A stretch of 64,000 nucleotides of DNA from NCBI GenBank assembly GCA_050273025.1, contig CP158635.1, forward strand, positions 21,266,001 to 21,330,000. The letters run 5' to 3'. This document shows positions 2,778 to 60,829 of this stretch, piece after piece. Position 1 is the first letter of the stretch; each line of letters opens with the position of its first letter. This stretch comes from Cenococcum geophilum (taxonomy: Eukaryota). A model generated the notes under the pieces. That model was not told the DNA's origin. It did no database searches and worked only from the letters and a program-made list of their open reading frames with translations. The position numbers and the translations under genes were made by a program.

Positions 2778-3611
2778 TACTTTATAACGGGACTAGCCTA
2801 GTTATAGTAGAAACGTCTTAACAAAACACTCGACAAATAAATTCTACCGAATTCTACTAGCTTAATCGACTTCTGCTAAGTTCTGTTAAGATTAATTAAA
2901 TTTTACTAAAGTCCGTTAAAGACCGCGTACGTATATACGCACGTATCGACTACTAAGACCCCTAACTATTTAATTATAAGATTCTCTTGTTATTCCTTTC
3001 TCTTTTTTATACAACGTCTTATTCTCTATAAGAGCTATACCCCTAGATTTAGATAGAATATATTTTATTCCTTTAAGTCTGCTTTAAAGCCTCTTCGTAC
3101 CCTTATATTATGTTGCGTTAATATAACTACTATTAAAATAGTAAATAAACTTAAATCCTTTACGTTAACTATAAGTATTATAGCCCTAGTTAGGGAGCAG
3201 TTATCTATAATATAAAAGTTTTTAATAGATGCCTTAGCCTAGTAATAGGCCATATTAGAAGCTTAGTACTAGTAATTAATAGAAGTAATTCGCGAAAAAC
3301 TCTATAACGTAAAAGCACTTATATTAGAGACCCTAATACCGCTTATAAATAAGATTAAAATAATAGTATCTAAACCTGGCCTATTAAACACCAATTATAA
3401 ACTAGTAATAGTAGTATAACCCATATCTATAATAAATTTAATACCTATTATGAAATCTAAAATGCTTTCTAACCCTCTAATATTTAATAAAAATTAAAAT
3501 AACCTACGTTCCTTTATAACTAAGCTCTATTTTAAACTTTTAATAAACTATAACTAATACCCTACTAAAGCTAGTAAGGTTAGCTCTAGAATATCTTATT
3601 TAAGTAAGGAC

Positions 3612-5043
3612 GGTATATTAGTATTTTATTAAGGCGCTAAGATCCTAAAGGCCTCCTAGTAGGATTTTAATTTTCCTAATTGTTTTAGTTCTTCTAATAG
3701 GTTTCTAGTAGGCTTCTAATAGGATCTTAATCGTCCTAATTGTCCTAATAGGCTTCTACTAGGATCTTTAATTTTTCTAATTGTGCTATTTAGCTCCTAA
3801 TAGGAAACTAGTATTTCCTAATTATCCTATTAAGCTTTTAATAGGAAACTAGTATTTCCTAATCGTCCTAATAGGCTTTTAATAGGACACTAGTATTTCC
3901 TAATTATCCTATTAGGTTCCTAGCAGAATACCCCTTAAGCAATACCCCCCTAAATACGATACCCCCTCCTTAATATAATACCTCTCCCCTAATGTAATAC
4001 CTCCCCCCTAATATAACACATACCCCTATATACGCGTACGTATAATATATAGTGCTATTAGATCCCCGCTATATTCCTAATAGCCTATATATACCTCTGC
4101 TAAGTTACCTCCTTTATAGCCACCTTTTTTTTACCCTTCCTTATATCCTCCCTATCTTAGGAGTTCTAGAACGGCAGCTAGTAGAGAACTGTTACTAGAA
4201 CTAGATAACCGCCCTAAAGCTAAACAACTATTACTAGAACCAGACAACCGTCGCTAGAACTAAATAACTATTGCTAAAACTAGATAACCGTCGCTAGAAC
4301 TAGATAGATAACTACCCTAAAGCTAGATAACCGTTACTAGAACTAGACGACCGTCGCTAGAACTAGATAGCCGTCGCTAAAACTAGATAACCGTTACTAA
4401 AACTTAACCGTTGCTAGAACTAGATAACAGTTATTAAAACTAGATAACCGTTGCCAGAACCAGATAATAACTATTTAAATAACTAGCTAGCAAACACTAT
4501 AAACGATTTAATTAATTGATTAATTAAATTAAACTAAAGCTTTAATATTGGCCTATCACCGAATCAAATCAAGGCCTCCTAAGGAGGGACCTTAAATAAC
4601 TACCGTTTGAATATAATCAGAGCCTTTAATGGGGCCGACCCCTTCCCTAAATTAAATTAGATACTAATATAAGCAGGTAGGTAAGTAGGTAGGTAGGTAA
4701 ATAGGTAGATAAGTAAGTAGACAAGTAGGTAGATAAGTAGGTAGACAGGCAGATAAGTAGGTAGATAGGCACTAGGCCTAGTTAAGAAATCAATATATAG
4801 CTAGGGGATTATTGGAAACACTGGTAATTAACGGTTTAGAGCCTCTGCGGGAGCCTTACCCCTTATCTCCTTAATTAATTGCTTAACGCCTAAGTAGATA
4901 TAGACATAGACATAGACATAGGTGGTAGGTAGGAAGGATTAATTTAAATAGATAGCTTAAAGTATCCTGTATATAAAATAGGGCCTAAAATTAAACTAAT
5001 TTTTATATTTTAACTACTATAAATACTAGAGTATTAATATACC
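3612..5043. repeat. Tandem-repeat-rich insertion interrupting gag of Gypsy A
   Basis: gag reading (..SKD) breaks at ~3612 and resumes ~5050. Arrays at 3650-3920 (ctaataggatcttaattttcc-like), 3930-4010, 4190-4470 (21-mer gctagaactagataaccgtc-like), 4675-4770 (GTAG microsatellite). 4060-4520 is homologous to 47234-47650. Boundaries approximate. Confidence 0.6.
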
Positions 5044-6541: not shown

Positions 6542-9500
6542 AATACCTTAAATACATTTCCCTATTTATAACACCCTTAAAGTAATATAAGGTAATACTT
6601 AGACATAAATAGCTAAAATAATATAACCTTTTAATTAGCCGGGTTAAAAAAATACTAAAGTTCCGTATAACCTACTACTAAAGCTATTACTTAAAACACT
6701 ACTTACCCTATAAATATATATATAACTATTTAAATTTAATATAATATAAATTGCCCTTACTATAAACCTTAAGCTAATATAATAAAGCTATAACTACTAA
6801 TTATAGCAAAGAATATAAAGATATTGCGCTAAAATCTTTTAAATTTTATGTAATATAAGCCGCACCATTTATTTTATTAGAAAAAAAATAAAACTATAAA
6901 ATCTCTGCTATAATAATAGAAGATATTAAGAAGGCGCTAGAAATAAAGCAATATATAAACCCTTAACCTCTTATATTTAAAGAGTATTATAATCTAATTA
7001 ATAAGTTTAAAAAAGAATTTATAGACTAACTACCCCTGTACTAAGATAAGTACGATTTTAAGATAGAACTAAAACCTAGTATAATTTTAAAGTTTGGTCT
7101 ATTATATGGTATATTATATATAAAAAAACCGCCTATAATATATTAATATATTAATAAACATCTAGAAAAAGAATTAATTTGCTTTAGTTAATCTCTATTT
7201 ACCTTACCTATACTATTTATTAAAAAGCCAGAAGAAGGTTTAAAATTCTATATTAGTTATTAAGCTCTAAACGTAATTATAATATAAAACTAATATCTAA
7301 TTCCTCTGATTTAAGAAACGCTTAACTGCTTAGTAAAGGTATAGTACTTTATAGGGCTTAATATAGTTACTACCTTTAACTAAATCTATATTTATAAAGG
7401 AGATAAAAAGTATATAGCCTTTTATATATAATAGGGACTCTTCAAATACTTAATAATGCCGTTTAATATAAAATATGGTCCTAGTATATTTTAGTAATAT
7501 ATTAATAATACTCTTCGCGAATTTCTCAATATATTTATTACCGCGTATATTAATAACATCCTAACCTACTTATCTTTACTTTCTAAGTATTAAAAGCATA
7601 TCTAAATAGTTTTTAAACGCCTGTAAAATATAGCCTTATAATATAATATTAAGAAATGCAAGTTCTACGCGTTTAAGGTAATATACTTAGGCTTAATTAT
7701 ATCCTATAATGGAATTAAAATAGACCTAAAGAAAGTTGCTATAATTATAAACTAGGAAAGTCCTAGTAATGTATAAGATATTTAAGGATTTCTAGAATTT
7801 GTAAATTTTTATTATTAATTTATTAATTACCTTTTAAAACTTATTTAGTTATTAGTAAACTTAATAAGGAAGAATATAAGATTTAAATAGACTATTAAAT
7901 GTAAATAAGCCTTTAATAACCTGAAGTATTATTTTATAACCGCTCTAATTCTTACCTACTTTAATTCTAACCTTAAATATATTATTAAAATAGACTCGTC
8001 TAATTATATACTAGGAGGAGTATTATCGCAATATAACAAAACGGGCGAGCTATACCTAGTAGCTTTTCTTTTCTAGAAACTTACCCCTACTATATTAAAC
8101 TATAAGATATATAATAAGGAACTGCTTGCAATTATTAGATACTTTAAATAAGGGTGTCTAAAACTAGAAGGATTGTTATTTCTAATACACATATTAACGA
8201 ACTATAAAAACCTATAGTACTTTATAACTATAAAGCAAATAATATAGTGCTAAATTTATTAGGCCAAATACCTTTTATAATTTGGCTTTAAAATTATATA
8301 CTAACCTAGCAGACTTAATTAGAAGCCTAACTTATTAATATAATAATTATAGGATTTACTTACGAACGCCTTTAACAAATGGATTATAAATTAATTATAA
8401 ATTCTACTACCCCCTAAACACTTTAAGAAACTACGCTCTATATTTCTAGATAAAGAGCTCTATAGAAATAAATTAGAAATTAATAAACTAATAGAGTACG
8501 AATATAAGAATAACTCCTAGATAGTAGATATAATTATTAGTCACATAGGGTGACTTACTAATAACGACTACTTAAGTAGGTTATAGTAATATTAGTTAAA
8601 AAGCTTGCTTCTTTATTAACGGAGGGCGAGGAGCTTAAGGCTCCTCGCTACGCTAGTACTGTGGCGATACGTAATAACCGCTTACTTTATTTCTAACACT
8701 AGCAACTTTTCTTTTATAGTTGCCATCTATATATAAATACTGCTTAACTAGCGTAACAAATATAAATCCTCCTTACTTACTATTGCTATTATAATATAAG
8801 TCTTGCTGTTTTAAATTTTGCCTCTTAGCATATAGTGCTTTCTTACTTATAAGTTATAGGTAGATATTGTGTTAGGGCGCTAAGGCGCTAGTTATAAGCG
8901 AGCTAATAGTAATTTTCTATACCGGGTATAGAAAATCCTAATTAGCTAGTTAAAATTAGGGTTTATAAAATATTATACTCTTACTCCCTTTTAACCTAAC
9001 CTTTAACCTATATATATAGAGTATTTATATTAACAAACGTTTCTAAAGCCTTGTTTAGGTTTACCTTTATTATTATATTTACTAGGTTGTCTTAGCTATT
9101 AATTTATTAAATTTTAAAGAGTTTTTGCCGTTTATAGGATTACTAAAGTACTATAATGTTAATTATAAGGCGCTTCTCCTTTATAGTACTAAGCTTAACT
9201 AAACACTTATAAAGGGAATATAAGTCGGTATATACAATTATAGAAATAACGGTGAGTTTAAGTTAATCTATAATTATCTTTAGGGTAGTTCTAATTGTAA
9301 TTACTATATTAACTCCGCTAACTATTTTATATATCTCTAACGCTAGAACACTTTAAGTAATATATTTACTCTTAGTTAAGCTCTAATAGATAAGATTGCC
9401 GTAGATTATAAAGTTATTCTCTTTAGTAGATTTGTTTATAATAATAATCTTATATCCTAACTAGGAACTAAAATCTTTATTATTTATAAACAATCTATTA

Positions 9501-16000: not shown

Positions 16001-18046
16001 ATATTAAAAAAGTATTTATAAGACATAGAGTACTAAGTAAGATTATATTAGATAGAGATCTAAGATTTATAGCAGTATTTTAGGAGGTATTCTTAGCGGA
16101 GTAAAAAGTTCGAGCAGTAACTTCTACCGTATATTATCCGCAGACAGACGGCTAAATAAAAAGATTAAATTAGACACTAGAGCAGTATCTAAGGCACTAT
16201 ATTAATCACGTATAGAATAATTAGGTATTATTATTACTAGTTATATAGTTTATATATAATACAACACCACAAAAAGGAATAGGTACGTTACTATTTAAGG
16301 CGAATTATAGATATAAGCTAAGAACATTATTATCGCCACGTTAAGTAAAGAAGATAAGTAGTATAGCTAAGCAAAGGATAGAGACACTAATAAATCTTTA
16401 TAAAAACCTTACGGAAACAGCTAAGGTAGTATAATAGAGAATAAAGAAATACTACGACGCTAAAAGATCTAAGGGACTAGATCTTAAGGAGGGAGATAAA
16501 GTATAGCTACTATATAAAAATTTTAAGAGTCGACGACTAAGTAAGAAGTTGGACTATATTAGACTAGGACCTTTCGAAATTATATAAAGAATTTCACCAG
16601 TTACATTTAAGTTAAACCTACTAGCTAAGATAAAAATCTACCCTATACAGCATATTATAATACTAGAGCTAGTATATAGGAATATTAAGCTACTAGTCTA
16701 CAAAGTAGACACGTATAGAGGACGAGAAGAAGACGAATAATAAGTTTTAAAGATTATTAGTTATAAGAACGTTAACAATAAAATATAGTATAAGGTTAAG
16801 TAGATAGGCTATAATAAGACTACCTAGGAACTACTAAAAAATTTAAAGAACGCTATAAGAAAGGTACAGGAGTATTAAAAGAGATTAGGTTAGGCAACAT
16901 TAATAAAAAAGGATTAAAAAAGGAGTTACTTAAGGGGGACCTAGGAGGAACAGCTACTGAACTATTTAGACTTGTTTTCTTTATAAGGGAGTCCGTTCTT
17001 TTATTACTAAGTTCCTACAGACCTTATTCTATAAGCTTCTACTCTTTAAAATAACCCTTTTTATAAACCTATTTAAGACGTAAAAGATAAGCAGAGGCTA
17101 GAAAACAAGTTTTAAGAGTATACTGTTAAGCGGCCGCAGCCTCTTATTCCGCCTCTCGCGATTAACGCAGTTTATTAAGGGCACTTAAGAGCTTACTATT
17201 AAGCTTTACAGCAGTAAATTAAACACGAGACCCTATAATAAATTACTTAGAAAACTTAAAGACTATTAAGAGTTATAGGACGTGTATACTTAGCGTTAGA
17301 AATAAAGCGAACATCGTAGAACAAATAAATATTTACTTTAGTGCACTCTAAATAAGAGGAAGGTTGCCGAGATAAAGGACTTACTAGCGTAACGCAAACT
17401 AACCCCTCTTTCGCACAACGAGAACACGGAGATAGTATTACTTTACCTAGCGATAGTATAACGGTGATAGTACGAGCGCGACAGGCTATAGAAGAAAGAG
17501 AAGTTACTTTTGGTATAATAAGTAATAATGTTAACTAAATTAATTAGACGGATATTATACCTCTAGTAAATAACTTAGAGATATTTAGAATCTTTAAGGA
17601 CAAAGATAAAGAGGAGGGAGATAGTGTTATAGACGCTTTAAGTACAATATTATAACTACTTAGAGAAGAGTTAAAAGAAGCTAGTTAGTTAATATAGGCA
17701 CGGTCTAGAATAGATCTGGTAGAACTATATAACGAGGAATAGTAACCAAGTCACGTAATATAATCTATATAATCTATATAATCTATATAATCCGTAATAG
17801 AGTAGATAAAGTATACGTACCTTACGTATAAGGAGGGTTTCCTAGGAGTATAGTTATATATTTAAAGGACCACAGTCCCTACTCTAGATAGTTCTTTCCT
17901 TATAGTGATTCTTAGAATACAATTAGAGTTAATCTATTAGGCAACTACTCCACCAGTTATTATTACGTTGTTAACTTACTTGCAATACCTACACACCTAG
18001 CCCAATAATGAGCCCATCGTAGTACTTGCTACAAGGTTCCGTTATA
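10048..18046 (+). mobile_element. Ty3/Gypsy chromovirus C, full length (~8.0 kb), same family as G0, D and F
   Basis: LTRs 10048-10469 and 17625-18046; TSD GGTAG at 10043-10047 and 18047-18051; PPT aaagaggagggagatag. gag from ~10509, protease ALIDSGA ~13630, RT ~14100-14900, RNase H, integrase, chromodomain ~16735-16880. Confidence 0.93.
16890..17516 (-). pseudogene. Antisense accessory gene of Gypsy C: Zn2Cys6-like cluster, 55-bp intron (17287-17233), coiled coil
   Basis: Directly readable SPCSRCAKEGLVC..SP.SRQPSS(C>Y).ECTK.N....(C>Y)DVR..S.A; branch ctaa and acceptor tag; exon 2 WSRV..AAAKLDSELSSALDELRQSREAEQEAAAA after de-RIP. Confidence 0.75.
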
Positions 18047-21000: not shown

Positions 21001-23763
21001 GGTAGTCTCTCTCTATTCTAATATATACTACTACTTATTCTCTTTTATTTTAAAGTAGTATCTTAACTTATATATTATGCGGTTAAAATTATATCCTTTT
21101 CCTGCTAAATAATTATAATAGAAGGTACTAGCTTAGCCCTTAAGTATAACAGAATAGGCGTTATAGTATTAATTAAACTATATTCCTACCTTCTAGTAAT
21201 AGTTCTAAAAGATACGCAATTTCAAATTAAGAACATTATATAATTCCCTGCTAAACTTCTTCTCTTAATCTAAATAGAGCTTCGCAAGCTCTATAAGTAA
21301 TTTTAAACTACCTCTAATTTAAGATTAAGATAGAGGAAGTAGGAGTTACATTATAGGCTGTAGTAGGGACTTAGGTTAAGTCGGTGGAGTTTAAAAGTTA
21401 TTAAATTATAAAGCAATAGGATCCTATGCCTGCTTTTATTAGGGTATAGTATCTAAAGTTAAAGTTATAGGTTAGATTAGATATAGAGGAGTTAAAGGTA
21501 GAAATAGATTCGTCTCTAGAGGTATATTACTTAGATTCTATTATAAGTTAAGCTTCCTTATAGTGCGTAGTTAATACTTAACCTCTTATTAAGTCCATTT
21601 ATGCTCTTCTTTTACATTAATAACCTACTCCTAAATATTATCTTTAATAGTATTCCCGTCCATAGGCATAAACACTCTATACTCCCGTAAGAAGTTATAA
21701 AAGTCTTATATAATATCCTCCTTTATAGGAGTCTATATTCCCTTTATCTATTTAATAAAGTCCTCCCTTATATAGTACCATAGTATAGTATTATTATATT
21801 CACTGTCTTTATAGTATACTATACGGTATAATAGAAATCCGTTTAAGTCTTACTAATTAATATCTTTAAGGTTAGTTATATCGGTATTCTATATCTCTAG
21901 GTTAATATCTTTCTTATACTTCTTTAGGTAGGTTAACGCTATAATAAAATCTATAAAGGTATACGGAGGGTATTAAGGTAGTTATTTAACGCGTTTTAAT
22001 AAAAAGATTAAGGAAAATAAGGGTTGTTTAACGTGTAATTAGGTAGTAATTATAATTCTATAGTCTATAAAGGTACATAAAGGGTATTAAGGTAGTTATT
22101 TTTAACGCGTTTTAGATATTAACTTAGGACTTTAGGTTTAGTGACACTTCTAACCTAAAGTACTTAACTAAATCTTTATAAACGTGGTTGTTCTATATAA
22201 TAAACGCAACTTAGTATCTCCTAGTACTTAATAACACTTCTATTACTAGTTTTTCGTAAGTATAGTATCGCCGGGATCTATTCCATATAAGCGCATGTAG
22301 CACCCCTATATAAGACTGTCTCTTCTATTTAAAAACCTAGCTGCTCTATAGTTAACTATATATTTAACCACTAATTAGTGTTAGTTATATAGGGTGACTC
22401 ACCAATAACAACTACTTAAGTAGGTTATAGTGATATTAGTTAAAAAGCTTGCTTCTTTATTGACGGAGGGCGAGGAGCTTAAGGCTCCTCGCCATGCTAG
22501 TGCCGCGGCGATACGTGACGACCGCTTGCCTTATTCCCGACAATAATAAAAGTAATTTAATAGGAAAACGGTAATATAGGGATAGTATACTCGCTAAATA
22601 TAAAATCTATAATAATCGGTTATATTATTAATAGAAGAGAGTAGTCCCAAATTCTAAAACCTTATAATTTAAGATACTTAAATTTATATGCAACTCTCCT
22701 ATAATAGGATATGCTAGCCGTATAAAGATATATAAGATAATTTAATAAGCGTATTACTGGCCTATAATATATAACTACGTGTAAAAATATATAAGTAGAT
22801 AGAATGTACGTATGTAAGAAGACTTCTTACATAAAAAAAATAGGGAGTACTTTAACCGTTGCTAATTCTAATGCAAAGATAGCAAGATATCTTAATTAAC
22901 TTTATAGTCGACTTGCCTAGCAGTAATAGGTTTATAAATATTATGGTAATTATTAACTATTTTATAAAAATACGATATATAATTCCTATAGACTCTATTA
23001 ATACAATATTAGTAGCCGAATGTTTTATTAAATACGTCTTTAGGCTATATAGACTTTTTAATTTAATAATATCCGACTAAGAAAGCTAGTTCGTTTTAGA
23101 CTTTTGGCAAGCCTTATATAAATAATTAGATATATAAACACGACTCTTTACTATATTTTACCTAAAGATAGATAGCTAAACCAAAATTATAAACGCGATT
23201 ATAGAGTAATATCTATAAATATACTACTTCTACCTATAGGGCGACTAAGAAAAGTAGCTGCCTTTAGCTAAGTTTACTGCGAATAATATAATAAACATAT
23301 TAATAGGCGTAACGCCGTTCTACGCAACCTATAAATAAAACCCCTAACTTATATTTAAATTATAACCCAAAATTAATATAATAGGACCTATAATTAAACG
23401 GATTTAGTTAATTAAATAAAGTAGTTAACAGAACTATTATAAAGTAAATTAGTATATACTTAAGTAGTATGGAAATGGCATATAAATAAGGGATAAGCTC
23501 CTACGTAGGACTTTAAGGAAGATAATATAGTTTATTTAAATATACGAAACCTAAAGACCTAACGGCCCTTAAAAAACTTAATTAGAAGTTTGTGGGCCTA
23601 TATAGAATTAAGAAGAAACTAAGCCCATATACCTATAAACTTAAACTATTAACTAAAATAAAAATATACCCGGCGTTTTATATAAGCTTACTATAACCTT
23701 TAAAAGGTAAACCTATAATACGCAAAGTGCCGCCGCCACCTCCTATAATTATTAATAATAGTA

Positions 23764-25871
23764 CGGAGGTAGCGGTCAAAAGTTCCTAGCCCCCCCTGCG
23801 CCATCAATGCGCCACCAATACGCCACAAATTTCTTTCTTGGCGTTCCGAATTAGGAAGGAGGCTAGTACGGAAGATGGATTTTGGCTCTCTATGACGAGA
23901 GTGTAGATATAAAACATCATGGTGGTAATATATAGGATTACTGCTTCTGCCCACTAGCTAGCCCACCACCTCGTCCACCACCTTGTCCACCACCTCGCCC
24001 ACCACCTCGCCCACCACCTCGCCGTGGCTTCTTTCCTTTCGATGACTCAGCCTGCTGCTGCTGTAGCTCCTGCTGCTGTTGTGGCTCTTGTTTGGGCTCA
24101 ATAAACGTCTTATTAAGTAGCTCAATTAGCAGGCAGCGTCATAGGTTCCGTCGTGGCTCCGGAGGTAGAGCTTAAGGCGGTTTAGGAGGTGATTCAGGAG
24201 GTGGCTCTAGAGGCTCTTGGGGTGGCTCTTGGGGTGGTTCTTAAGGTAGCCCATAAGCTTCTTATATCGCGAAGATAGCAGTAAGAGCAGCGCCAGCAGT
24301 GCTCTTAGCTACTGGTGCCTTCTTTAGAGCACGTCGTCGTGGCTTTAGCTGCGGCTCTTCCTCCTTAATATTAAATATATCCTCCTAATTATGCTACGGA
24401 ACTTAGTATTCTAATAGCCCTAGTTAACATGGCTTATCTAATAAGTCTTCGCGATACTCGTTGCCTCCTTTAAGCCTTATTATCTCCTATATATAGCAAG
24501 GGATCCTCTTAATTCAACGCTGGATTCGCCACTGCTCTAGCTCCCTCTATACTTTATACCAGGCTTTCTTAGTAGGCTTTTAAGCTATAAGGGCGCCCTT
24601 CTTAGTAGTAACTCTCTTAAGGTATGGCCACGCTGGCTTTATTATATTTATATCGGGCGAATTACTATATTAGGTAAGGCGTTAAACTTCTACAGCGCTT
24701 ATTAAAAGGTCGTAATACTTAGCAACGTAAGCGGGAGTCTTATCTTCTTAAATTAGCGTATTTAGAAGATTCTTTTAGTAAGCTTAAGCAAACGGAATTA
24801 GCTTTAGTGTAAGAATAAACGTTATATAGCGATACTAATTAACTCCTTTACCACTACCTTTTATAAGCTTACCGTAACTTTTATCCCATTTCCATATAGA
24901 TTTCTTACCTATAAAATTTCGTATTCCCGTTCTCCTTATAGCAGTTATAAGCTCCCATTCTGTTCTTACAATAGGTTTAAGTTCGGCGTTAATTTTAATA
25001 AGATTAGCTGTTGCAGTAGCTTATTATTATATTATCTTAACGGTCCAAATATAGTAGGGGCCCTTTCTATAATATAAGAAGCTGCCCTAGAATATAAACT
25101 TTAAATAGCCCTTCTACTAAGGTCTTATTGTAGATCTAAGAAAGCGTTCTTTTGGCTGCCTCTATACGTAATAGCCTTTAAGGCAATAACTAAGAATAAC
25201 TAAAGTCTTATTGCTCTAGATAACGTTTATCTAATCCTCTAAAGTCTAGTCCTTATAGCGAAGGCAGAACTTAAGCCTATCCTTCTTTATCTGCGCTGAA
25301 AGACCGGGCTTATAAGTAGCCTTAGTCTTACGGAAGTTCTGCGATTTAAGGATTCGCTATATAGTTCCGGCACTAAGATCGGTATTAAAAGCAAGTCGCT
25401 TAGTACTCTTTTCCCTACTATAGCGGTCATAACGAACCTTCTTAATAACTTCTTAAATCTTAGTAGATGTATATTTAGTTAGACGACCTAATTAAGGTGC
25501 ATCTCTAAGGTAAATATTAAGAATTGTGCGGCTTTTGGTCTCGTCAAAGCCGCGTTTCCCTGCTTCTTAGATGACCGATTTAATGCGGGAGACGCTTATT
25601 CTAGTAGCGGCTTAAATATCGGCATTTATGCTGCTATAAATCTTTATAGTAAGGGCCTAAGCCCTTATACAGATGTTGTATAAGTTACCTATTACAAATA
25701 GTAAGATATAATAAGGATTTAATGTATTTTAAAAGCTTATAGAGTATATTAAGGGGAGAGTCGCATATATCGCAACCCCGCAGTGCGCGCCAAGCATCGC
25801 TTACGCCATACTAAGCCACTAAAGGCTAGCGCACATCTGGGGGGGGCCAGGAACTTTTAACCGCTACTTCG
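23764..25871 (-). mobile_element. Tc1/mariner DNA transposon (~2.1 kb) inserted between integrase and chromodomain of Gypsy A
   Basis: TA on both sides (23762-3, 25872-3). ~32-bp imperfect TIRs cggaggtagcggtcaaaagttcctagccccccc vs reverse complement cgaagtagcggttaaaagttcctggccccccc. Confidence 0.9.
23938..25692 (-). pseudogene. Tc1-family DDE transposase (RIP-inactivated) with long low-complexity C-terminal tail
   Basis: De-RIP motifs QEDK.PA, WCGNSPDMNMIEPAWPYLKR, GGNEYRE. Continues into Pro/Gln-rich sequence and ends KKPRRGGGRGGGRGGGQGGGRGGG..QKQ* (one apparent frameshift in the tail). Confidence 0.8.
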
Positions 25872-26830
25872 TAATGGTTCTTACTTTATTAACTTAATTA
25901 ATAATATATAATTGAAAATATAATCTAAATAATTTAAACTTCTTATTAAGTGGGAAGGATATAAAATATAAATATAGGAAACTTATAAATAAATTAAACT
26001 AACATGCCTCCCTAGTAAAAGAATTCTATAAAGACTATCCTTTACAGCCTACTTTAGCTAGATAGACGCGATATAAAGGTAAATAACTACTACCTAATAT
26101 AAATACACGAAATATAATAATAGGAAACTTAAATTTAAAAAGAACTTAAAATATACTATAACGCTTATAATACGGTTATATAATATATAAGATATTAAGA
26201 AACTTTAACCACTGGTTAAAGTTATTTAATTAGTTAGATTTGCCTTGCTGAAACTTACTATAAAGATATTAGTTTAGCTTACCGCCTTAACTAAGCTAAT
26301 AGTGATTTTCTATACTAGGTATAGAAGATTTTAATTAGTCTATTTAATAATTAGAACTAGTAAAATACTATATTACTACCTAACGCAAATACACGAAACG
26401 CAATAAGTTATAAGTCTTAACTGAAATTAAATTATTTTAAACCTTTAATTAAAGTAGGGGGTACTATAATGGGACTAGCCTAGTTATAGTGGGAACATCT
26501 TAGTAAAATACGTAACGAATAAATTCTAACGCTTTAACTAAATTCTGCTAAATTTTACTATCTTAATTAACTTCTACTAAGTTCTATTAAGATTAATTAA
26601 ATTCTACCAAAGTCCATTAAAAACCGCGTGCGTATATATGCACGTATTAATCACTAAGATCCCTAACTATTTAATTATAATATTTTCTCGTTATTCCTTT
26701 CTTGTCTTTACGCAACGTCTTATTCTCTATAAGAGCTATACCCCTAGATTTAAATAGAATATATTTTATTCCTTTAAATCTGCTTTAAAGCCTCTTTATA
26801 CCCTTATATACTTATAGTTCTCGCTATATC

Positions 26831-36209: not shown

Positions 36210-39200
36210 ATAGTAATAATTAATAATAGTTATCTAAATAACTATAATACTATTATATAACTAGAACTTAAGACTTTACTAACTTATCTACTAATAGGCT
36301 TATTAGATCTCTATTAAATTAAGTAATAGAGTAGTATTAGGTAAGAGAGAATACTAAAGAATACTATAAAAAGACTATTAAGTAGTATAGAGGATACTTA
36401 GAAAAGGTTTATTATTACTAAAATACTAAAAGTCTATATATAGACTCTGTATAGTATATAAACTTAAGCTTTATATAGTAAAAAAATTAGAAAGATTATA
36501 TTCTCTATATATTTTACTAAAATTTTAGTTAAAAAGGCAGGGATATAATATATTAAGCTTTATTAAATTTCTAGAATAATACCTTTATACGCCTATAGAT
36601 TACTATATAGATTGGCGTTATACTAAGCTAAATTAGTATTACGCTATATATGTTAGGTGAAACCTAAGTAGATAGTTATATAGCCGCAAGGTATAGGCGA
36701 CCCTAGGGCAACCCAGGGGTGACTCGCCCATAAGGCACGTGCTCTACACGTGCCTAGGGAAAACCCTTCCTACCTTATATATAGACTCCTCCTTTTCCCT
36801 TAAGGATTTGTCTCTGTCTATACAATATACCTATTATTCTATTATTAGACTCCCTATCTATATCTTTACCTTATATTTAAATCCTTACCAATCCCCTTAG
36901 AAGGATAGCCGGTTTAATTTTCCTATAATGCCTCCGAAAAAAAAACCGACGCCTACACCTAACGGTAATACGCTAGCGATGTGACCGTAGAACGCCTTAG
37001 GATTTAGTGCAAATAAAACCGCTAGAAGTATACTAGTAGAATTTAAGCCACCTTCTAAACCTTAAAACGATTAGATATCTATAAACGCTAAAGACTAGTT
37101 TAACTTATATACCTAGGCTTAATAGAAGCTTAGTAAGGTTACTAGCGTCCTACCTAATACCGCTAATATAAAGGAGCTAGATAAGCTGGCTAAGAAAATA
37201 GCTAACTTATAGAGCATTATCGATTCGATAAAGCCCTCCCGTTACCCTTTTAGTAAAGAGTATAAGTTATATAGCGAACACATACGCCAAATAAATCTTA
37301 ACGCCCTAGTTAAGAAGTTACTACCTAATATTAGCGGTATTACTTATTAGCATTTTAACTGGTAGATCGCCGCAGTTAAGAACCAATTTAAGGTTAATAA
37401 TGCTAACTATAACTGTAAGTGACGTACGTGTTGGGCTATTAAAGGTCTTATAAAAAAGAAGATAATTACCTAACTAGTTTATTGCCGGTTAGGTACTAAG
37501 GATAAGGGTCCTTTACTATAGGACGAATTTAAGACTATAGTCTAAGACTAGATTAGGAATCCTATAGAAAGACGCTTTAATAACGCTATAATGTACTATA
37601 CGGCTGTTATAAAGGAGAACTAGAGGTTTAATGTCTTCCTAGCCCATATACGTAGCTTAGAGGACCTCTTCTTATATACCCCTTTTATTAATCCTAAATA
37701 ATAGGTAGACTTTTAGTTCTTATATCTCTCAGCCCACCTATAAGTAGAGCTCTTCCGCTAGAACTTTGCCTAATAGGTAAAAACTACTAAAGACCTCTTT
37801 AATAAAATCCGCTATATAAAGTAATTACTTAATACTATAAAGCTCGCAGAAGATTGCGTAAGTAGTAGCGGCAAATTATTATATATAAAGCGCGGTCGCA
37901 GTATAGGCTCTATAGAGTTAGGCTTAGGGAATAGAACCTAAAAAGGGCGACGCTTTTTTAAGTAAACTCCTAGGGAGACTACCTAAAAGCTGGATGGCTT
38001 AGGGGACCCCCTAGACACCGGTGCTACGTAGGCGAGTTAAAGGACCGTAGGCGGCCACCGTAAGGAATACTGGAAGTAGCCCAATAAAGAGAAGTTAGCT
38101 CGGCCTTTAGAAAACCTAAAGCCCTAGTAGCGTATCTCTTTTAACTATAACTAGGGCCTAATATAAAGGGAGAAAAGAAATGTATTGTAGTATATATTGC
38201 GATAAATACGCCCTAGGGTAAAGTCCGCCTATATATTTTATATAATAATAGGTGCTAAATTAACCTTATTAATTAAGACGTTGTCTATAAGTTTAACCTG
38301 CCTATACGCTACGCGCTATATCTACGTAAACCTATTGCATGTTTCCTTAATAATAACTAGATAATAATCTGGGATACTTATAATCTAATAGTTACTACTA
38401 GCGACTCCTAGGGTACCTCTTACACTATTAGCCCGCAGACCTTTTAGGGCGGCTTATTTAATGGTTATAATATAGTTCTTAAATAGGATTAGCTTGCGGA
38501 AGTAGATTTATTAATTAGCTTCTGTTCTAGATAGTTTATCTAGGGTACTTTAAACCCTAAACGCCTCTAGATAGTTACCCTTAACGCTCTTCTCGCAGAT
38601 ATTAAGGCTAGTAAAATAGTCTATTTACTATAGCTAGAAGACTCTTTTTCTACGCCGGTTATAAACATAATAGAGGACCTATTATTACTGGCAGCGAGTA
38701 CCTATATAGACCCTCCGGATATAGAGACACCGGTTATAAATATAGTAGAGGACCTACTGTTACTAGCAGCGAGTACCTATAAAGACCCTTCGGTGCTAGC
38801 GCAGATCACCTATATATAAGGGGGAGGTGATTAAAACCCTAAAACTATTAAGTATACTATAGCGGAGCTATATACACTCTTAATGCGAGTATACCTATAA
38901 AATGTATATTGGCTGTATCCTTCTCTCTACTAGCTCTTAGAAGTATACTACTATATAATAGTTGCCTTGACCTCCGTAGCCCTTAGCCTACTAGATATAT
39001 ATAAGGAGGAAATTAATATCTTCTCTAATAAGCTAGTAAGTATACTACCATAGAACTCTAAGTATAACTATGCGATCAACTTAGAAAAAGGCAAGATGCT
39101 ACTATAAATGCCCCTCTATAACCTCTTATAGAAAGAGTTATAGATTCTATAAGAGTACCTAGACAGTGCTCTTAAAAGGGGCTAGATTAGGCCTAGTAAG

Positions 39201-42200: not shown

Positions 42201-45200
42201 TAGTACCTTATTAAATGGCTAGGATAGTTAAATAAGTATAATAAATGGAAATACGAGATAGAACTTAAGAATTGTTAATAACTGCTAGATAAGTACCGTA
42301 AGTGGGACACCCTAGCCTTATAGCCGAAGCGTAGGCGAAAAGTAAGCGCCGCTATTAAAATATAACCTGCATTAAAGCGGAGTAGAGGACGTCCTAAGGG
42401 ATTAAAGAATAAGCGATTGCTGTAAGAACTATAGCTTTAATTTAAAAAGCACCCTTTCTAGACCTAGTCCGTTACTCTATACTAGCTAAGTAAATTGTTT
42501 ATATATTAGAGAATAGGCCCGTTTATAACTAGGGTTTATTTAACCAAGGTTTATAACCTGCTAGTAATCTACCGGTAGTAACCTATACTAATAACTTATA
42601 TACTATTCTACGTATATACTACGCAAATAACGTATAAGGCTAAAATATAGGTTAGCGGCGGGTCTAATAGGTATATAGCCTTACCGTCCTAATCTAGCTG
42701 TATATAAATAACCTATAACCTACCCACGAAGTATATACGGCGTTATACCGGCATAGTGTAAGGCTAAAGTAGGGTTAGCGGCGGATTTAATAGGTATATA
42801 GCCTTACTGTTTACGAATCTGGCTATATATAAATAACCTATAACCTACCCGCGAGGTACTAGCGACCTGCCTATATAAGCGAGCTTTAGAATATTTCTAG
42901 TCTACTAAATTTAAGCGACGGTATTAAGCTCTACTAGCTCTACCTATTAAATAGACTAATTAGGATTTTCTATACCGGGTATATAAAATCGCTATTAGCT
43001 CGGTTAAATGCGGGGGAGTCTTAGTAAGGCAAATCTGACTAATTAGATAACTTTAACCGCCGGTCAAAGTTCCTTAACATCTTCACGCCGCGTATGTATA
43101 CCCGTCTCTCTATATATAAAATTAAAACACTCTTTCCCCTTTAAATTTTTTCCTTACTAAGGTTTTTTAGGGGTTTTATTAAGGCTTAAGTATATAAAGG
43201 ATTGGGGACGACCCTTTTTAAAGGGGGTGTTACGGACGCTTTAAGTACGATGTTATGACTACTAGGAAGGGAGTCGGAAGAAGCTAGTTGGTTAATATTA
43301 GCACGGTCTAGTATAGAGCCAGTGGAACCATATAATAAGGAATGGTAAGCGAGTTATATAATGTGCTACGTAAGGAATAAGAGGAACGGAGGGAACTTAT
43401 ATACCTTACGTATAATGCGTACCTTATATATAAGGAGGGTTTCCTAGAAGTACGGTTATGTATTTAAAGGACTACAATCCCTACTCTAGATAGTTCTTTC
43501 CTTATAGTAATTCTTAGAATACAATTAAAGTTAATCTGTTAGGTAACCACTCCACTAGTTATTATTACGTTGTTAACTTACTTGCAATACCTACACACCT
43601 AGCCTAATAATAAGCCCATCGTAGTACTTGCTATAAAGTTCCGTTACATAATTACTACCTAGTTACGGTTTTAATAAGTTAAATAATATACCACCAAAAG
43701 TAGCCACTATAACGCCATCGACGGCGGCAACTACTTTAAGGTCTGGAGACGACACTAATATAGTAGATACTAACTTATAACAACCTGTGACGGTCGGATA
43801 ACTATAAGAGATAGTTGACCAGTTAATAGAAAATAATATAATACTTAAATAAAGGATTAACGGGATAGGCGTAGTAAAGGTTAAGTTACTATTAATTAAA
43901 AGATTCTTAGGAGAAAGATTAAAGCTTAAAGGATTTCTTATATAAATACACTTTAAGGTAGCGCAGGAAGGAGTAAAGCTGGTAACGCCTATAGATCGAA
44001 TAGCTTACGCGGGATTATTCTTATTAGGAAGAGCACTTAAATAATTTAAGCCTTACCTTATAGAAATATAGGTAAATAGAATAACAACCACTAATTAAGA
44101 GGTGCGGTTTATATTTTTAAGTTAGGAAGGATTTGTAGAGCGACTTATATAGATATTTAGAGACCCAGAGGCAGTAACTATAGCGGAAAGAAAACTTTAA
44201 GACATTATGTAATAAACCTTAGCAATTAAGTATATAACGCAGTTCTAAACGCTAGCTATATAAGTTAAGTGAAATAATAGGGCGCTTATGGCACAGTATA
44301 AATAGGGACTTAAGGCTAAAGTCTAGGACGTAATTATTCTAATAGAAGATGCGGACACCCTAAGGGAATTAATAGATTAAGTAATAAAGATTAACAACAG
44401 GATCTTCTAAAGGGAATAGACTAAGAGAGGTTAGGATAGAGTTTTATAGTTATATAAGGCGTAGAGTACGTAACGACTAAAGCTAAGTTAGAAATTATAG
44501 TATAGCGCAGAGCTAATGGACCTAAGCGGTACTAAAGAAGCCTATAAGAGATAGAGTAAAAAACTATAAAAACCTAGAGGTTAAGGATCTAGTAATTATA
44601 GGACTAAGGAGTAAAGGCTAAACTAGGGATTTTATTAGTAGAAGACGTTTAGGCAAACTCTATAGTAAAGTTAATAGTTTAAAGACGGAGCTTATATAAA
44701 TTGCGGGAAATAGGGTTATTTTATAAGGGATTATAAAGATAGTTAGAGTTATTATATAATAAAGGGAACCTAACTAGTAGAAGACATATATATATAGAGG
44801 GATAATAGTGTACTGCGAGGAACGAAAGAATATTTAATTAGAAGTTTCGCGTTTTGTTATAATAACGTATACTAAATTTATAAAGACGCTAAGTATGGCG
44901 TAAGCTATTAGCTATAAGAGCTAGAGTTAAGAGGACTTAAAGGAACTAAAGAGTTAGATAAAGAATAAGATTAACTCTATAAGTTAAATTAGGATATTAT
45001 AGCAACATACGGATAATAATCAGCAATAATAATAATAGAATTAGAGTATTTATTAATTAATAGCGATGAGGATAGTAAAGGAACTAACTAGGGGTATCCA
45101 AACCTTAATAACGCAATAGAAGTAGAGACTAAGACCGCTATAGAGCAAGGTTTAATAACGGGTATTATAACACCGTTAGATATAGCATCTATCGCTTTAT

Positions 45201-53836: not shown

Positions 53837-55773
53837 AATAAGTAACGATATTAACTAGATTAATTAGACGGATATTATACCTTTAGTAAATAACTTAGAG
53901 ATGCTTAGAATCTTTAAGGATGAAGATAGGAAGGAGGGAAATGGTGTTATAGACGCTTTAAGTACAATGTTATAACTACTGGGAAGGGAGTCGGAAGAAG
54001 CTAGTTAGTTAATATTAGCACGGTCTAGTATAGAGCCAGTGGAATCATATAATGAGGAATAGTAAGCGAGTTATATAACGTGCTATGTAAGGAACGAGAG
54101 GAATGGAGGGAACTTATGTACGTTATATATAATGCGTACCTTATGTATAAGGAGGGTTTCCTAGGAGTATAGTTGTGTATTTAAAGGACTACAGTCCCTA
54201 CTCTAGATAGTTCTTTCCTTGTAGTGATTCTTAGAATATAATTAGAGTTAATCTATTAGGTAACCACTCCACCAGTTATTATTACGTTATTGACTTACTT
54301 GTAATACCTACACACCTAGCCCAATAACAAGCCTATTGTAGTACTTACTACAAGGTTCCGTTATAGGGGGGGCATTATTAGGTAAAACCTAAGTAGATAA
54401 TTATATAGCCGTAAGGTATAGGCGACCCTAGGGCAACCTAGGGGTGACTTACCTATAAGGTACGTGCTCTATATATGCCTAGGGAAAACCCTTCCTACCT
54501 TATATACAGACTCCTCCTTTTCCCTTAAGGATTCGTCTCTATCTATACAATATACCTATTATTCTATTATTGGACTCCCTATTTATATCCTTACCTTATA
54601 ATATAAAGCTATTAAGCTTTAATTAGTAGTAGACGGATTCTATTTATAGGAGGTAGGCTTTATATTAACCCCTATAAAAATAAAACTAGATTTTAAATAA
54701 AACTAGTAATTATAGATACGCTTATAGCTATCCTATTTTATTACTTATCCTTCTTTAAATATTTTAAAGCCTTTTAAAAAAGCCCTAGAAGTAGAGTAGG
54801 CAAGTATTTAAATTGAATTTAACTTTTAACTTTTAGCTTTTTATAGGTAGGAAAGGCCTAGGGTTAAAGGTTAAACAAAGGAACCTATAATGAAAGTTTT
54901 ACTATACTATAGAGGAAGAGTTGGGGAATATAATACCGCAGATAGGCTTCTTACCTATAACGGCAAAGGAAGGCTTGCAAACCTATTATAAAGGTGCTTT
55001 AGCAGTATTAGTTCCCTACCTCTTTCCATCTCCAAAAAAATATTAGGGTTTTAGGGTTCCGGTAAAACCACTATACCTACCCGGCCACTATATTATATTT
55101 CCGCTTTTAGACCTAAACAAAGTCGTTTTAAGCTAAAACTATTAGCAAGAATCCTAAGAGCTATAGTAGTATAGTAGTATAGCCCTGTGTATTCCTATGC
55201 TAAACTTAGCTAGTCCTAAGCATATTTAAGCCCTTCTACTTATACCTAATTTTACCCTAAGCACGTTATAGAGACTAAAATTAGGCACTGTTATATCTAG
55301 GAGCTCCTAGTTTTAGGCCTCTAGTATTCTCTAAAGGGGCCTAGTTTAGAGACCCGCGTCTAGAGATAGCTTAAAAGAGGGGACCCCTTCTTGGCTAGCC
55401 TTTTAGCCTCCCATCTTAGCTAGCCCTTTTATTTAACTAGCTTGTCTATTCTAGCTAGCCTACTTAATCGGCGAACCCTTTTATTCGTCTGGCTTCTCTT
55501 TTCGCCTAGCCTATACAAAAATACCAGTTTAAATAGATATATAAGTTCTACCTTTACAATTATTTCCTTCTTTAGGTTTAAAAACTTGTAGGTAGAGCTT
55601 AAATTAAACCAGTTCTTTGACGCCTATTATAGGGGGCTTAATAAGCTAGAGTTGGGGAGGGATAGAAGATCTAGTACAAAAGAAGGCAATAAAATAGATA
55701 ACTTAACCTAGGAGCTAGTACTTATAGAGGACAATTTATTAATCCACCCCTAGCTATTTTCGTCGGCGGTAGC

Positions 55774-56787: not shown

Positions 56788-58501
56788 CTAGGCTTGAAAG
56801 AACACCTGCTGCCCTCTCGCCACAGTGTCTAGTGATAGCTTCGGAGGCTCAACCGCCAACTCTACAGTCGCAACACCCGTCGTGGTCAAAACCTTCCCAT
56901 CAGCATCCACTGCATCAGCCACAACCCCTTCAACCCTTCCTCCCTTGACAACAAGCTCGGTCTCAAAGCTCGTCCTCTTCGCCTCGCCCAAGAACGACCT
57001 AGAGCCAGCCTCATCAGCCACGGAGAAGAAACGCCAAACCGCAGTCTCCGTATCTCCATTCCACGAGACATAGGCCGTAGTGCCGCCACTTTCACTCTCA
57101 AGAAGAACAATCGACGGGACTTCATTCGGCAACCCAGTCCAGTTGTACCTGAATCCACGGTAGTTCTCGACGCCTTCGCCGAGGAAACCCGAGTCCATGT
57201 ACGCGTGAAAGATCGGGGTGCCATCTGCTCGAAACTCTGTGACGGCGCCTTCAGAGCCCCAATTCACAAGAGCGTTGCCATTAGGCAGGAGCTGGGTGCT
57301 CCCCTGGGACTTGGACAGCAGATCGTCCGGCGGATAGAAACCCTGCACAAGCGTAGCCTCCCATGTCCTAGTGTTGAGCTTAATAATCTTGCCCGAAGAC
57401 GTCGGCGCTGTGTGGACTTCACGCCCACGTCCATCTTCAGTGCCATGGGCAGAGTTGTCGTACAAGGAGATGACCTCTTCATCTCCGTCCTGCGAGACGA
57501 AGCGTGCGTGGTGCTGGAAGCAGAACTTGACGCCCTTACCGAGCTTAAAGTCGGATTTCTTGCCGTCGAGGCGCCAAATGATGTCGCCGGTGGAGCCGTT
57601 GATCTTGTGGACGGAGCAGGCGTCGCGGGCGGATATGAGGTAGTTGCCCGAGGTGTCTTTGTCAACGGAGTTGATGTGGAAGTAGTCCCAGGCGTCGGAG
57701 GAGTTGAAACCGGAGCCGGCTTGGCCGGGGTTGATTGGGAGGACGGATTCGGAAGGGGAGACGTGGGAGAGGCTGGACCATTCGAAGAGGAGATGGCCGG
57801 TGGTGAGATCGAGTTCTGTTATGAATCTATTAGCACAGCGGCTGGCGCAAGAGAGTAGAACGATGAGCTACCTTGGAAGATGGCATTGACAATCCACTGT
57901 TGCTCTGGCGAAGCGCCCCATCTCGTCAGATCTCGCGGAACCGGCTGGTAGACCTGAATCAACGCCGTCTCCTCGTTGATGACATGAAACTCGTGCTTGT
58001 CCGTGAGCTTGTGGTTGCCAGCCCTCAGCTCTCGGATAGTCTCATAGTGCTGGTCCAAAATGGTGGTGTGCCCATGACCATGGCCGTATCCAGCATCTGT
58101 TCTATTTGGTCAAAACACCATCGACAGCATAAAAAGGAGCGCTTACTATGATCACCCTCAAAAGAGAACAGCACATCCATCCCATTCCATCTCGCCTTCT
58201 GGAAGTTGGTTGCCCAAATGGAGTAATACCCATATCCCGACCAGACCAAATCACCATCGTCGCGAAGGATGTACGGAGCAGCTTGGCGGGGCCCGTGCTG
58301 CTCCCTAGCTTTATCGGGGAAGCCGGCAAAGGGCGCGAGGAATAGGTATCCCTTTTCGACATCCGCAGTCGCAGAAATAGTAATGTTCAGACGCGGCGGC
58401 GCCAGATCCGGTCTCGACTTGAACTGCCAGTCCGCAGAGACAAGAGGCAAAGCCGCCAGCGCAATGGCAACCAAGGGTAAAAGCACGCCACGGTATTTCA
58501 T
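56788..58501 (-). CDS. Secreted arylsulfotransferase (ASST-domain) protein; exons 58501-58147, 58096-57872, 57815-56788
   Basis: Signal peptide, FKSRPDLAPP, PYILRDDGDLVWSG, DKHEF, WDYFHINSVDKD, FCFQHHARF, SQGSTQLLPNGN..WG, YVSWNGDTE; GT-AG introns restore one frame. Confidence 0.92.
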
Positions 58502-58963: not shown

Positions 58964-60829
58964 ATGGCGATTTCTTCTTCTGACTCGGCGGATATAGAAC
59001 AAGACGTTGACGAGACGTCCCCTCTTCTCACGAATCAACACGAGCAAAAATGGAAACCACCGAAGGGCTTCATGTGGATAGAAGTTGGTAAGTTCATGCC
59101 CCGGTAAGACCTCGCCAATTGGATCTCCATGTTCTCTTCAGCTAATGAGCAAAGCAATATTCGCGAATGTCTTCCTCACAGGCTTCGACGGTACCATCAT
59201 GGCATCGACTTACGCATTGATATCCTCGGAATTTTCAGCCGCCAACACGGCGTCGTGGCTCACAACATCCTATCTCATCACGACCACGGCCTTCCAGCCG
59301 CTCTATGGCCGCTTCTCTGACATCTTTGGACGCCGTACCTGCTTCTTTATCGCTGGTACCTCCTTCATGATTGGCTGCTTAGGCTGTGCGGTCGCACAGA
59401 CTGTGTGGGTGCTGAATCTGATGAGAGCAGTGACGGGAATAGGAGGAGGTGGACTGATGACCGTGGCGACGATTATCAACAGCGACTTGATTCCGTTCAG
59501 AAAAAGAGGTATTTACCAAGCTGTGCAGAATGTGCTCTTCGGCTTTGGCAGCATATGTGGAGCGAGCCTGGGAGGAGTGATTGCTGACACTATTGGCTGG
59601 CGATGGTGCTTTATACTGCAGGTGCCGGTCTCCCTTCTTGCTCTTGGAGTCGGATACTTTGCAATCAAAAATCCTGAGAAGTTCGGACATGATGCCTTGG
59701 ATGCGGAAGACCAAAGGTCCGTGTGGCGGAAGGTGGACATTGCCGGATCCGCGCTGCTAATCCTCAGTCTATCTGCCCAGCTTGTTGCGCTGAGTCTTGG
59801 GGGAAACGAACTCCCTTGGAGCAACGTATGGGTCATCACAACGTTGGTCGGAAGCGTGGTACTGCTCGGCTTATTCGTCCTGGTCGAAGCAAAGACCAAG
59901 GCTCTGCCAATTATCCCTCTGCGCATGCTCCGTGGCTTTCGACCAATCGCGACACAATTGGCGAATGTCTTCTTTGGAATGGCTGCGTATGCGGTAAGTC
60001 TCCTGTGGTGCCAGCAGTCGGCAATGCGCTCTGATTCGGTCTGTTAGTTCCTCTTCCAGGTGCCGCTCTTCTTCCAAGTTGTGCTTGGAGAATCGGCATC
60101 CAGGGCTGGAAGCAGACTCATCATCCCATCGCTTGCGACGCTCATAGGAGGTGTGATTGCTGGCGTCGTCATGTCCCGTTGGGGCAAGCTCGCTTCGCTC
60201 GTCAGAGCTGGAGCCTTCCTCATGACTCTTGGAAACGTCCTCGTTGCCACCTTCGAGTTCCACGACTCTGGTTGGAAGTACATCGTCTATCTCTTTCCCG
60301 CCAACCTTGGACAAGGCATGGCGTATCCTAGCACCCTGTTTACGTTTCTGGCGATATTCGATCATTCAGGTTAGTGTTCACGTTTCAACTAATGCCGAGC
60401 AAACAGGCTGACCCAGCGAGCAGACCACGCCGTTTCCTCATCGACCGTCTATTTGATCCGTTCTCTCGGGACGGTTTGGGGCGTGGCTATAACTTCTGCG
60501 ATAACGCAAAATGTGCTCAAGGCTCGCTTGCCCGGCGCTCTGAGTGGAATACCAGATAAATGGAGAGTGCGCCTTTTGCTGTTTTTCCCTGTTGGAACCT
60601 TACAATTGGATGCGTGGAAGCTGACATTTCCACTTCCTCTCGCTAGGTCATCGACGAGATTCGACACTCAGTGGGAGCACTCCATCAATTGCCGCCAGAT
60701 GTGGAGATGCGGGCGCGCATGGTGTATTACGAAGGCATCCGACTGTCGTTTATCGCTTCCTCTGGGTTCGCTCTTGTCGGCTTCATTGCCGCGCTCTTTA
60801 CGAGAGGGCGGGGTCTCGAGCGCTCTTGA
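58964..60829 (+). CDS. MFS transporter, 14-TMS DHA2/Vba-like; introns 59088-59154, 59994-60047, 60370-60423, 60567-60646
   Basis: DETSPLL N-terminal motif, FLTGFDGTI, SWLTTSYL, FQPLYGRFSDIFGRR, GGGGLMT, GWRWCF; spliced frame ends at TGA 60827-60829. Confidence 0.92.

Follow-up and report, generated by a model that had tools for sequence, protein, structure and literature searches.

A palindromic module framed by twin CCAAT boxes recurs in Copia and Gypsy retrotransposons of a filamentous fungus

A 47-bp dyad, in which a CCAAT box and an inverted CCAAT box enclose a 25-bp palindrome, recurs in both Copia and Gypsy LTR retrotransposons of the 178-Mb genome G000. We favour, at roughly even chances, its interpretation as a composite double-stranded DNA site for transcription factors that was spread by recombination, a site that would belong to the LTR promoter of one Gypsy family while being kept by the others as a portable, enhancer-like block. 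The cis signals of LTR retrotransposons are usually deemed family-specific, whereas here one block is found in thousands of copies and in both superfamilies, in a host genome that is swollen with retrotransposons despite RIP. If functional, the module would name a host factor complex on which this expansion relied, show that regulatory parts move between Copia and Gypsy, and provide a 47-bp testable handle on element activity under fungal genome defence.

The window analysed, a stretch of 64,000 nt (G000:C1:21266001-21330000), is an AT-rich, RIP-mutated nest of LTR retrotransposons from a filamentous fungus, with a composite RIP index above 0.8 across most of 1-56 kb. Self-comparison identified the LTR pairs of Gypsy A (2783-3108 and 26465-26809), Copia B (about 8535-8698 and 22379-22542) and Gypsy E (36653-36881 and 54366-54607). 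These LTRs give no BLAST match to one another, in keeping with the original prediction, which had called them unrelated. Elements A and E lie on the plus strand. Element B lies on the minus strand, with RT motifs in X-read frames and its 3′ LTR at 8535-8698; it is of the GalEa type, and a GalEa hairpin site, a feature described in the accessible text of PMC5445492, is found right behind its 5′ LTR. The polypurine tract (PPT) and 3′ LTR of A occupy 26453-26809 (plus strand). In E, the polypurine tract and the initial bases of the 3′ LTR are found at 43198-43213 (plus strand), the remainder (54366-54607) being displaced by an inserted element, F. A transposase remnant, presumably Tc1/mariner-like from its motifs, is inserted in the integrase/chromodomain region of A (about 24300-25860, minus strand, X-read frames). 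Outside the repeat block, host genes are located at 56788-57864 (minus strand) and 59082-60044 (plus strand), with arylsulfotransferase and MFS transporter domains.

All three predicted copies of the module are present in the window: 8901-8947 in Copia B, 26294-26340 in Gypsy A and, with the 47-mer on the minus strand, 42954-43000 in Gypsy E. A CCAAT box, 4 nt, the 25-bp palindrome, 4 nt and an inverted CCAAT box follow one another. In B, the worn box lies at 8903-8907, the palindromic core at 8912-8936 and the inverted box at 8941-8945; the cores of A and E are located at 26305-26329 and 42965-42989. The palindrome has 12-bp arms, as originally described, around a single central base, and is embedded in a longer imperfect stem. 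All three copies are RIP-worn forms, and their outer AGCTAAT/ATTAG arms are worn CCAAT boxes. The unworn form is visible in less mutated natural copies from G000 and from metagenome contigs, one of which (L156) reads AGCCAATAGCG ATTTTCCATCCCGGGGATGGAAAAT CCTGATTGGCT. Readings of the module as a Helitron end, a hammerhead or a C/D box were abandoned after such low-RIP copies had revealed the CCAAT boxes. The module follows the sense of its element in A and opposes it in B and E, at about 125 bp (A), 200 bp (B) and, before the insertion of F, 210 bp (E) from the 3′ LTR. It is accompanied in B by a conserved, asymmetric tail of about 28 bp (8873-8900, minus strand), homologous to the U3 of a Gypsy family whose LTR contains the module, and in A by a tail (26270-26293, plus strand) in which short words of the B tail appear in inverted arrangement.

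A RIP-tolerant core pattern matched 272 exact sites in G000 and none in the reversed control. G000 holds at least 2,291 module cores (controls, 0), a lower bound because the E variant and more worn copies escape the core pattern. At least 121 stretches with the module were found in metagenome contigs; a host gene beside one of them is 95% identical to its G000 counterpart, so that these copies widen the range merely to a close relative. Viral contigs gave no match. All copies come from one species complex, and conservation may therefore partly reflect recency. The flanks of 240 sites formed 18 multi-copy clusters and 70 singletons, the clusters spanning Copia and Gypsy in both orientations, several of them being subfamilies of one GalEa lineage. 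One module is found per element end, with the exception of cluster 5, which has two.

For 66 of 71 sites picked by pattern alone, an LTR or the 3′ end of a known LTR element is no more than 450 bp away, and three of the other five appear LTR-like. When copies were picked from the pol side, blind to the module, it was present in 30/30 Copia B and 25/30 Gypsy A copies, each set counting the window's own copy. Four of the five module-less Gypsy A copies have suffered insertions or truncations; the fifth (L287) has a deletion of about 90 bp that includes the flanks. Neither a random scatter of sites with target-site duplications nor an absence from other copies of these families was thus observed. 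The idea that a tiny hitch-hiking element favours 3′ UTRs as an independent, MITE-like transposon is largely refuted, and we leave it hardly any probability. Its inverted-repeat form, its thousands of copies and their two orientations would suit a MITE, but the flanks are conserved family sequence without target-site duplications, the sites keep to LTR-element ends, and the sole clean loss, in L287, takes flanks along with the module.

Three placements were recognized. In A, B, E and further families, the module lies in the 3′ UTR ahead of the PPT. It is part of the LTR itself in the L228 family, and in families 9 and 11 it is found about 250 bp past the gag or pol stop, 2.2-3.1 kb before the 3′ LTR. 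The predicted distance of at most 300 bp from the 3′ LTR therefore holds for the three window copies but not for these last three families. In every family mapped, the module is located about 50-800 bp behind the last gag or pol stop, even where the LTR is 2-3 kb away. Both orientations occur: the near-identical GalEa elements L241 and L242 carry the module in opposite orientations, GalEa copies being antisense in 29 cases and sense in one. Module-free relatives exist (L138:3386, L287, L111, L171 and the whole C family). A location of the family 9 module inside the LTR was considered and rejected, L229 being a tandem of two elements that share a 240-bp LTR, with the module internal. Together with L304/L305 (G000:C1:589,600-600,700), this locus comprises two gag-only elements. 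In the L229 family, and likewise in a 10.3-kb Gypsy relative, sequence of coding-like appearance extends for 2-3 kb beyond the module.

In the Gypsy element L228, both 229-bp LTRs contain the module, at positions 36-82. Its primer site has 10-nt complementarity to LTR positions 162-171. By analogy with Tf1 self-priming, as presented in the accessible text of PMC5445492, transcription would start at about LTR position 162, which would place the module 80-126 bp upstream of the start. A CT-rich box lies between the module and this putative start, and no TATA match was found in L228. By position, the module would thus be a U3 promoter element in the L228 family, whereas those of A, B, E and families 9 and 11 lie outside the LTR. 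The complementarity of the primer site of the L228 family to its own LTR, as in Tf1-type self-priming, was noted at L228:2294-2320 and L105:1700-1790. An LTR at L131:500-720 retains the tail and the CT box but has lost the palindrome; the module of that family is found in the 3′ UTR.

Relics of such LTRs are found in Copia. In many Copia copies the sequence downstream of the module aligns with the L228-type LTR for 26 to 147 nt. The 3′ UTRs of GalEa elements, 217-555 bp long, are mosaics, and some of them include a Gypsy-like PPT with the beginning of an LTR, or else a CT box or a complete LTR end. Among 65 distinct GalEa UTRs that could be delimited (from 73 pol ends), the core and tail are kept in 64, while three other blocks are present in 48, 42 and 12; a blind sample of GalEa UTRs had core and tail in 25/25. 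Because foreign LTR ends and PPTs lie within the Copia UTRs, the transfer probably went from Gypsy to Copia. This direction applies to the L228-type relics and is not extended to Gypsy A and E, whose tail type is inverted. These relics, and flank clusters from both superfamilies, support the proposal that a cis module has been exchanged across superfamilies. Template switching or nested insertion may have copied pieces of a Gypsy 3′ end or LTR into the non-coding sequence downstream of the last gene in other Gypsy and in Copia elements, where they would then have been trimmed and inverted.

Recombination could also be the whole explanation. A stable hairpin would stall reverse transcriptase and, as the sole homology between families, would be the place where template switches cross. 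The switches would shuffle flanks and homogenise arms, and the block would be a passenger of an insertion-tolerant non-coding stretch, of no benefit to the element. We consider this unlikely. Such a hinge would account for the mosaic UTRs with breakpoints beside the module, for the amplification of module-free variants (the C family; L138:3386) and for occurrence in one species complex only, and patch exchange or arm-to-arm copying would explain why paired positions change jointly (see below). It fits poorly with the rarity of clean losses (1 deletion in 30 A copies, 0 in 30 B copies), with linker length and CCAAT consensus being kept on both sides, with the equal spacing in a second palindrome, and with the promoter-like place in the LTR family. 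Even as a hinge only, the module would document recombination across superfamilies.

The boxes themselves argue for a protein-binding site. According to the accessible text of PMC7144946, the CCAAT-complex consensus is CCAATVR and the footprint of the complex takes in the 13 nt that follow CCAAT. Intact left boxes read RR-CCAAT-VR in 156/156 cases. In intact right boxes, RR was found in 162/164 and VR in 74/164, the rest being RIP-type G>A changes. With two 13-nt footprints (PMC7144946, as far as its text is accessible), exactly the central 7 bp would be left free. The 4-nt linkers keep their length and consensus but not their pairing: of the 138 copies in which the two boxes are intact, 134 have purine-purine at position -4 and 98 have C.C at position -2. 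We thus envisage two CCAAT-binding complexes (HapB/C/E, the fungal NF-Y) that would face inward, and a symmetric partner protein that would occupy the palindrome enclosed by them. The block would serve one Gypsy family as the upstream activating portion of an LTR promoter that lacks a TATA box; elsewhere it would be retained because the element still profits from it, either as an enhancer that works in both orientations or as an island that opens chromatin. A dimeric protein site was the best of the three guesses in the original prediction, once the CCAAT boxes are added, but its CCG/CGG centre did not survive: the centre is CC-N-GG, and most copies lack a CCG/CGG zinc-cluster site.

A second palindrome, P2, points in the same direction. 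It is 23 bp long, unlike the module (P1) in sequence, has a single CCAAT box and is common to Gypsy and GalEa elements. In Gypsy A it spans 26201-26232 (minus strand; palindrome 26201-26223, with one worn box 17 bp from the axis), and in Gypsy E 43040-43071 (plus strand; palindrome 43049-43071, also with a worn box). With its box, P2 occurs at 3,626 G000 sites (control, 0). The distance from box to axis is 17 nt in both palindromes. In a scan of 13-29.5 nt, 565 P1 and 147 P2 matches were found at 17; copies within P1 or P2 are related, so that the weight rests on the agreement between the two. A third family combining a CCAAT box with a dyad was sought in 1.23 Mb of loci, where none exceeded 4 copies. 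The unpaired linkers of fixed length, the use of both orientations, the matching spacing in P2, the retention in UTRs and the LTR position in L228 all support the composite site.

Other observations weigh against the composite site. Most families carry the module outside the LTR, 5-10 kb downstream of the 5′ promoter, where the action of a classical fungal upstream activator is not expected. RNA reads cross the module without a pile-up of starts, at low depth. The module-free relatives, and the origin of all copies from one species complex, also count against it. The core comes in two forms, which differ in having C..G or G..C at a single symmetric pair; among the 2,291 G000 sites 1,079 and 1,210 are pure and only 2 mixed. 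This joint switch counts against the composite site because independent half-sites do not predict it. Host sequences showed no excess of the half-site (3 versus 1 in the control) or of a relaxed box-plus-dyad geometry (8 versus 16), and with no host sequence sharing the geometry a host partner factor cannot be named. The ERSE motif bound by NF-Y/ATF6, CCAAT-N9-CCACG, was present at 0/320 intact boxes; the spacing is similar, with the letters CCATG/CCATC.

The joint switch, found in 10 of the 18 clusters, would fit a palindrome that pairs as nucleic acid. Near its 3′ end, genomic RNA or cDNA could form a hairpin or an intermolecular duplex that serves in dimerisation, export, stability after the stop codon or a pause of reverse transcription, an alternative we regard as possible but rather unlikely. 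A palindrome works either way round, and the 3′ UTR and U3 are alike located at the 3′ end of the RNA. In every family mapped, the module comes within about 50-800 bp after the last gag or pol stop. Both strands fold strongly, with z from -3.9 to -9.0, the window copy giving -3.9 and -4.8, and for one natural copy the self-duplex reaches -68.5 kcal/mol against -53.8 for two hairpins. P1 and P2 differ in sequence while both being near-perfect dyads. The switch also occurs among Gypsy A copies that show 2 transversions between their flanks over about 800 bp; the corresponding tree covers Gypsy A only (37 rows, 6 changes), with weak support and no shuffle control. Yet only 1 of 12 arm pairs covaries, though very strictly, the others being invariant apart from RIP, and a single-pair switch is given equally by patch exchange or by arm-to-arm copying in reverse transcription. 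A pairing signal also leaves unexplained why the linkers, although unpaired, are fixed in length and match the CCAAT consensus, and why the asymmetric tail is retained in both orientations. An Rfam scan, suggested in the original prediction, gave no family at gathering score: there was no match in the window, and four low-RIP loci yielded two generic miRNA-hairpin matches far below threshold. In retroviral dimer-initiation hairpins, the DIS palindrome is located in a loop near the 5′ end. These hairpins, also named in the accessible text of PMC5445492, resemble the module in being self-complementary and able to form an intermolecular duplex, but in the module the palindrome is the stem, lies near the 3′ end and occurs in either orientation.

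RNA containing the module does exist. Four RNA runs gave 93 raw reads over L105:500-3200, at low depth and with strand uncalibrated, without pile-ups of starts or ends. The un-RIPed module sequence was found within longer pieces, from family-9-like and L087-like elements; L228 was absent from the RNA matches listed. At L087 / L240 (G000:C1:667,225), the module is part of a Copia 3′ end that has suffered little mutation and is separated by a few hundred bases from a host gene; two presumed RNA assemblies contain matching sequence at high depth.

The C/F/G0 family lacks the module, as predicted, in all 17 of its 3′ segments (at least 500 bp), and P2 is absent too. The antisense gene attributed to this family is suggested by a Cys-rich minus-strand frame at 17259-17534 that recurs in F and L150 and is followed by a coiled-coil-like stretch, but searches of Pfam, a protein database and Atlas gave it no support. 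Its Cys pattern is reminiscent of a Zn2Cys6 cluster. A bolder conjecture, which we find decidedly improbable, is that the twin-CCAAT palindrome is a licence, independent of position and orientation, traded by Copia and Gypsy. As a host-factor platform on the integrated copy or cDNA, it would keep the element transcribable within RIP and heterochromatin, or help the cDNA to reach and tether to chromatin. Each element would then need one of two things, this block or a Cys-rich regulator of its own, for which the C/F/G0 antisense frame would be an example.

No description of the module was found in the literature listings searched or in the accessible texts of PMC5445492 and PMC12910237. PMC12910237 (2026), on a TE-rich, RIP-affected ascomycete genome, has no mention of palindromes, CCAAT or hairpins in its accessible text. 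On the best reading, the action of the module may resemble that of NF-Y-type LTR enhancers or of Sirevirus RM boxes, but it is a member of neither group, nor of the GalEa conserved hairpin site (CHS). NF-Y is described as binding mammalian LTRs with partner sites at fixed spacing, also in closed chromatin, and human LTR12/ERV-9 and MLT1 have CCAAT boxes in U3 and partner sites at fixed distance (PMC3730095; PMC12065363, accessible parts). The fungal module differs in its two inverted boxes around one palindrome, its place mostly outside the LTR and its occurrence in Copia and Gypsy, and its binding is predicted. The RM boxes of plant Copia Sireviruses, for which a regulatory role has been proposed, and their PPT-flanking inverted repeat are likewise conserved, palindromic, non-coding dyads in LTR and internal sequence of divergent elements (PMC2829016, accessible part). 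RM boxes are, in contrast, short, CGG-CCG cored, of high copy number per LTR and found in one Copia genus (same source); the module shares their dyad symmetry but is mostly single, CCAAT-framed and present in both superfamilies outside plant Sireviruses.

Aspergillus CBC:HapX bipartite sites also combine a CCAAT box with a downstream partner site at fixed spacing, but their motif CSAAT-N12-RWT was found at 0/320 intact boxes of the module, and a symmetric twin-box layout is not described in the accessible text of PMC7144946. The CHS, finally, is a conserved hairpin or palindrome common to families of one fungal species, and B has one. According to the accessible text of PMC5445492, it takes the place of the primer site, immediately behind the 5′ LTR (CTGATCAGT/CTAATTAGT), and is confined to GalEa; the module has another sequence, lies at the 3′ end and occurs also in Gypsy. 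The CHS of B, of the published sequence 1, is a separate feature at 22370-22378 (minus strand), adjoining the 5′ LTR. GalEa LTRs contain other odd-centred 25-bp palindromes without CCAAT boxes, at 8625-8649 (in the 3′ LTR of B) and 22469-22493 of the window and at L243:6635-6660.
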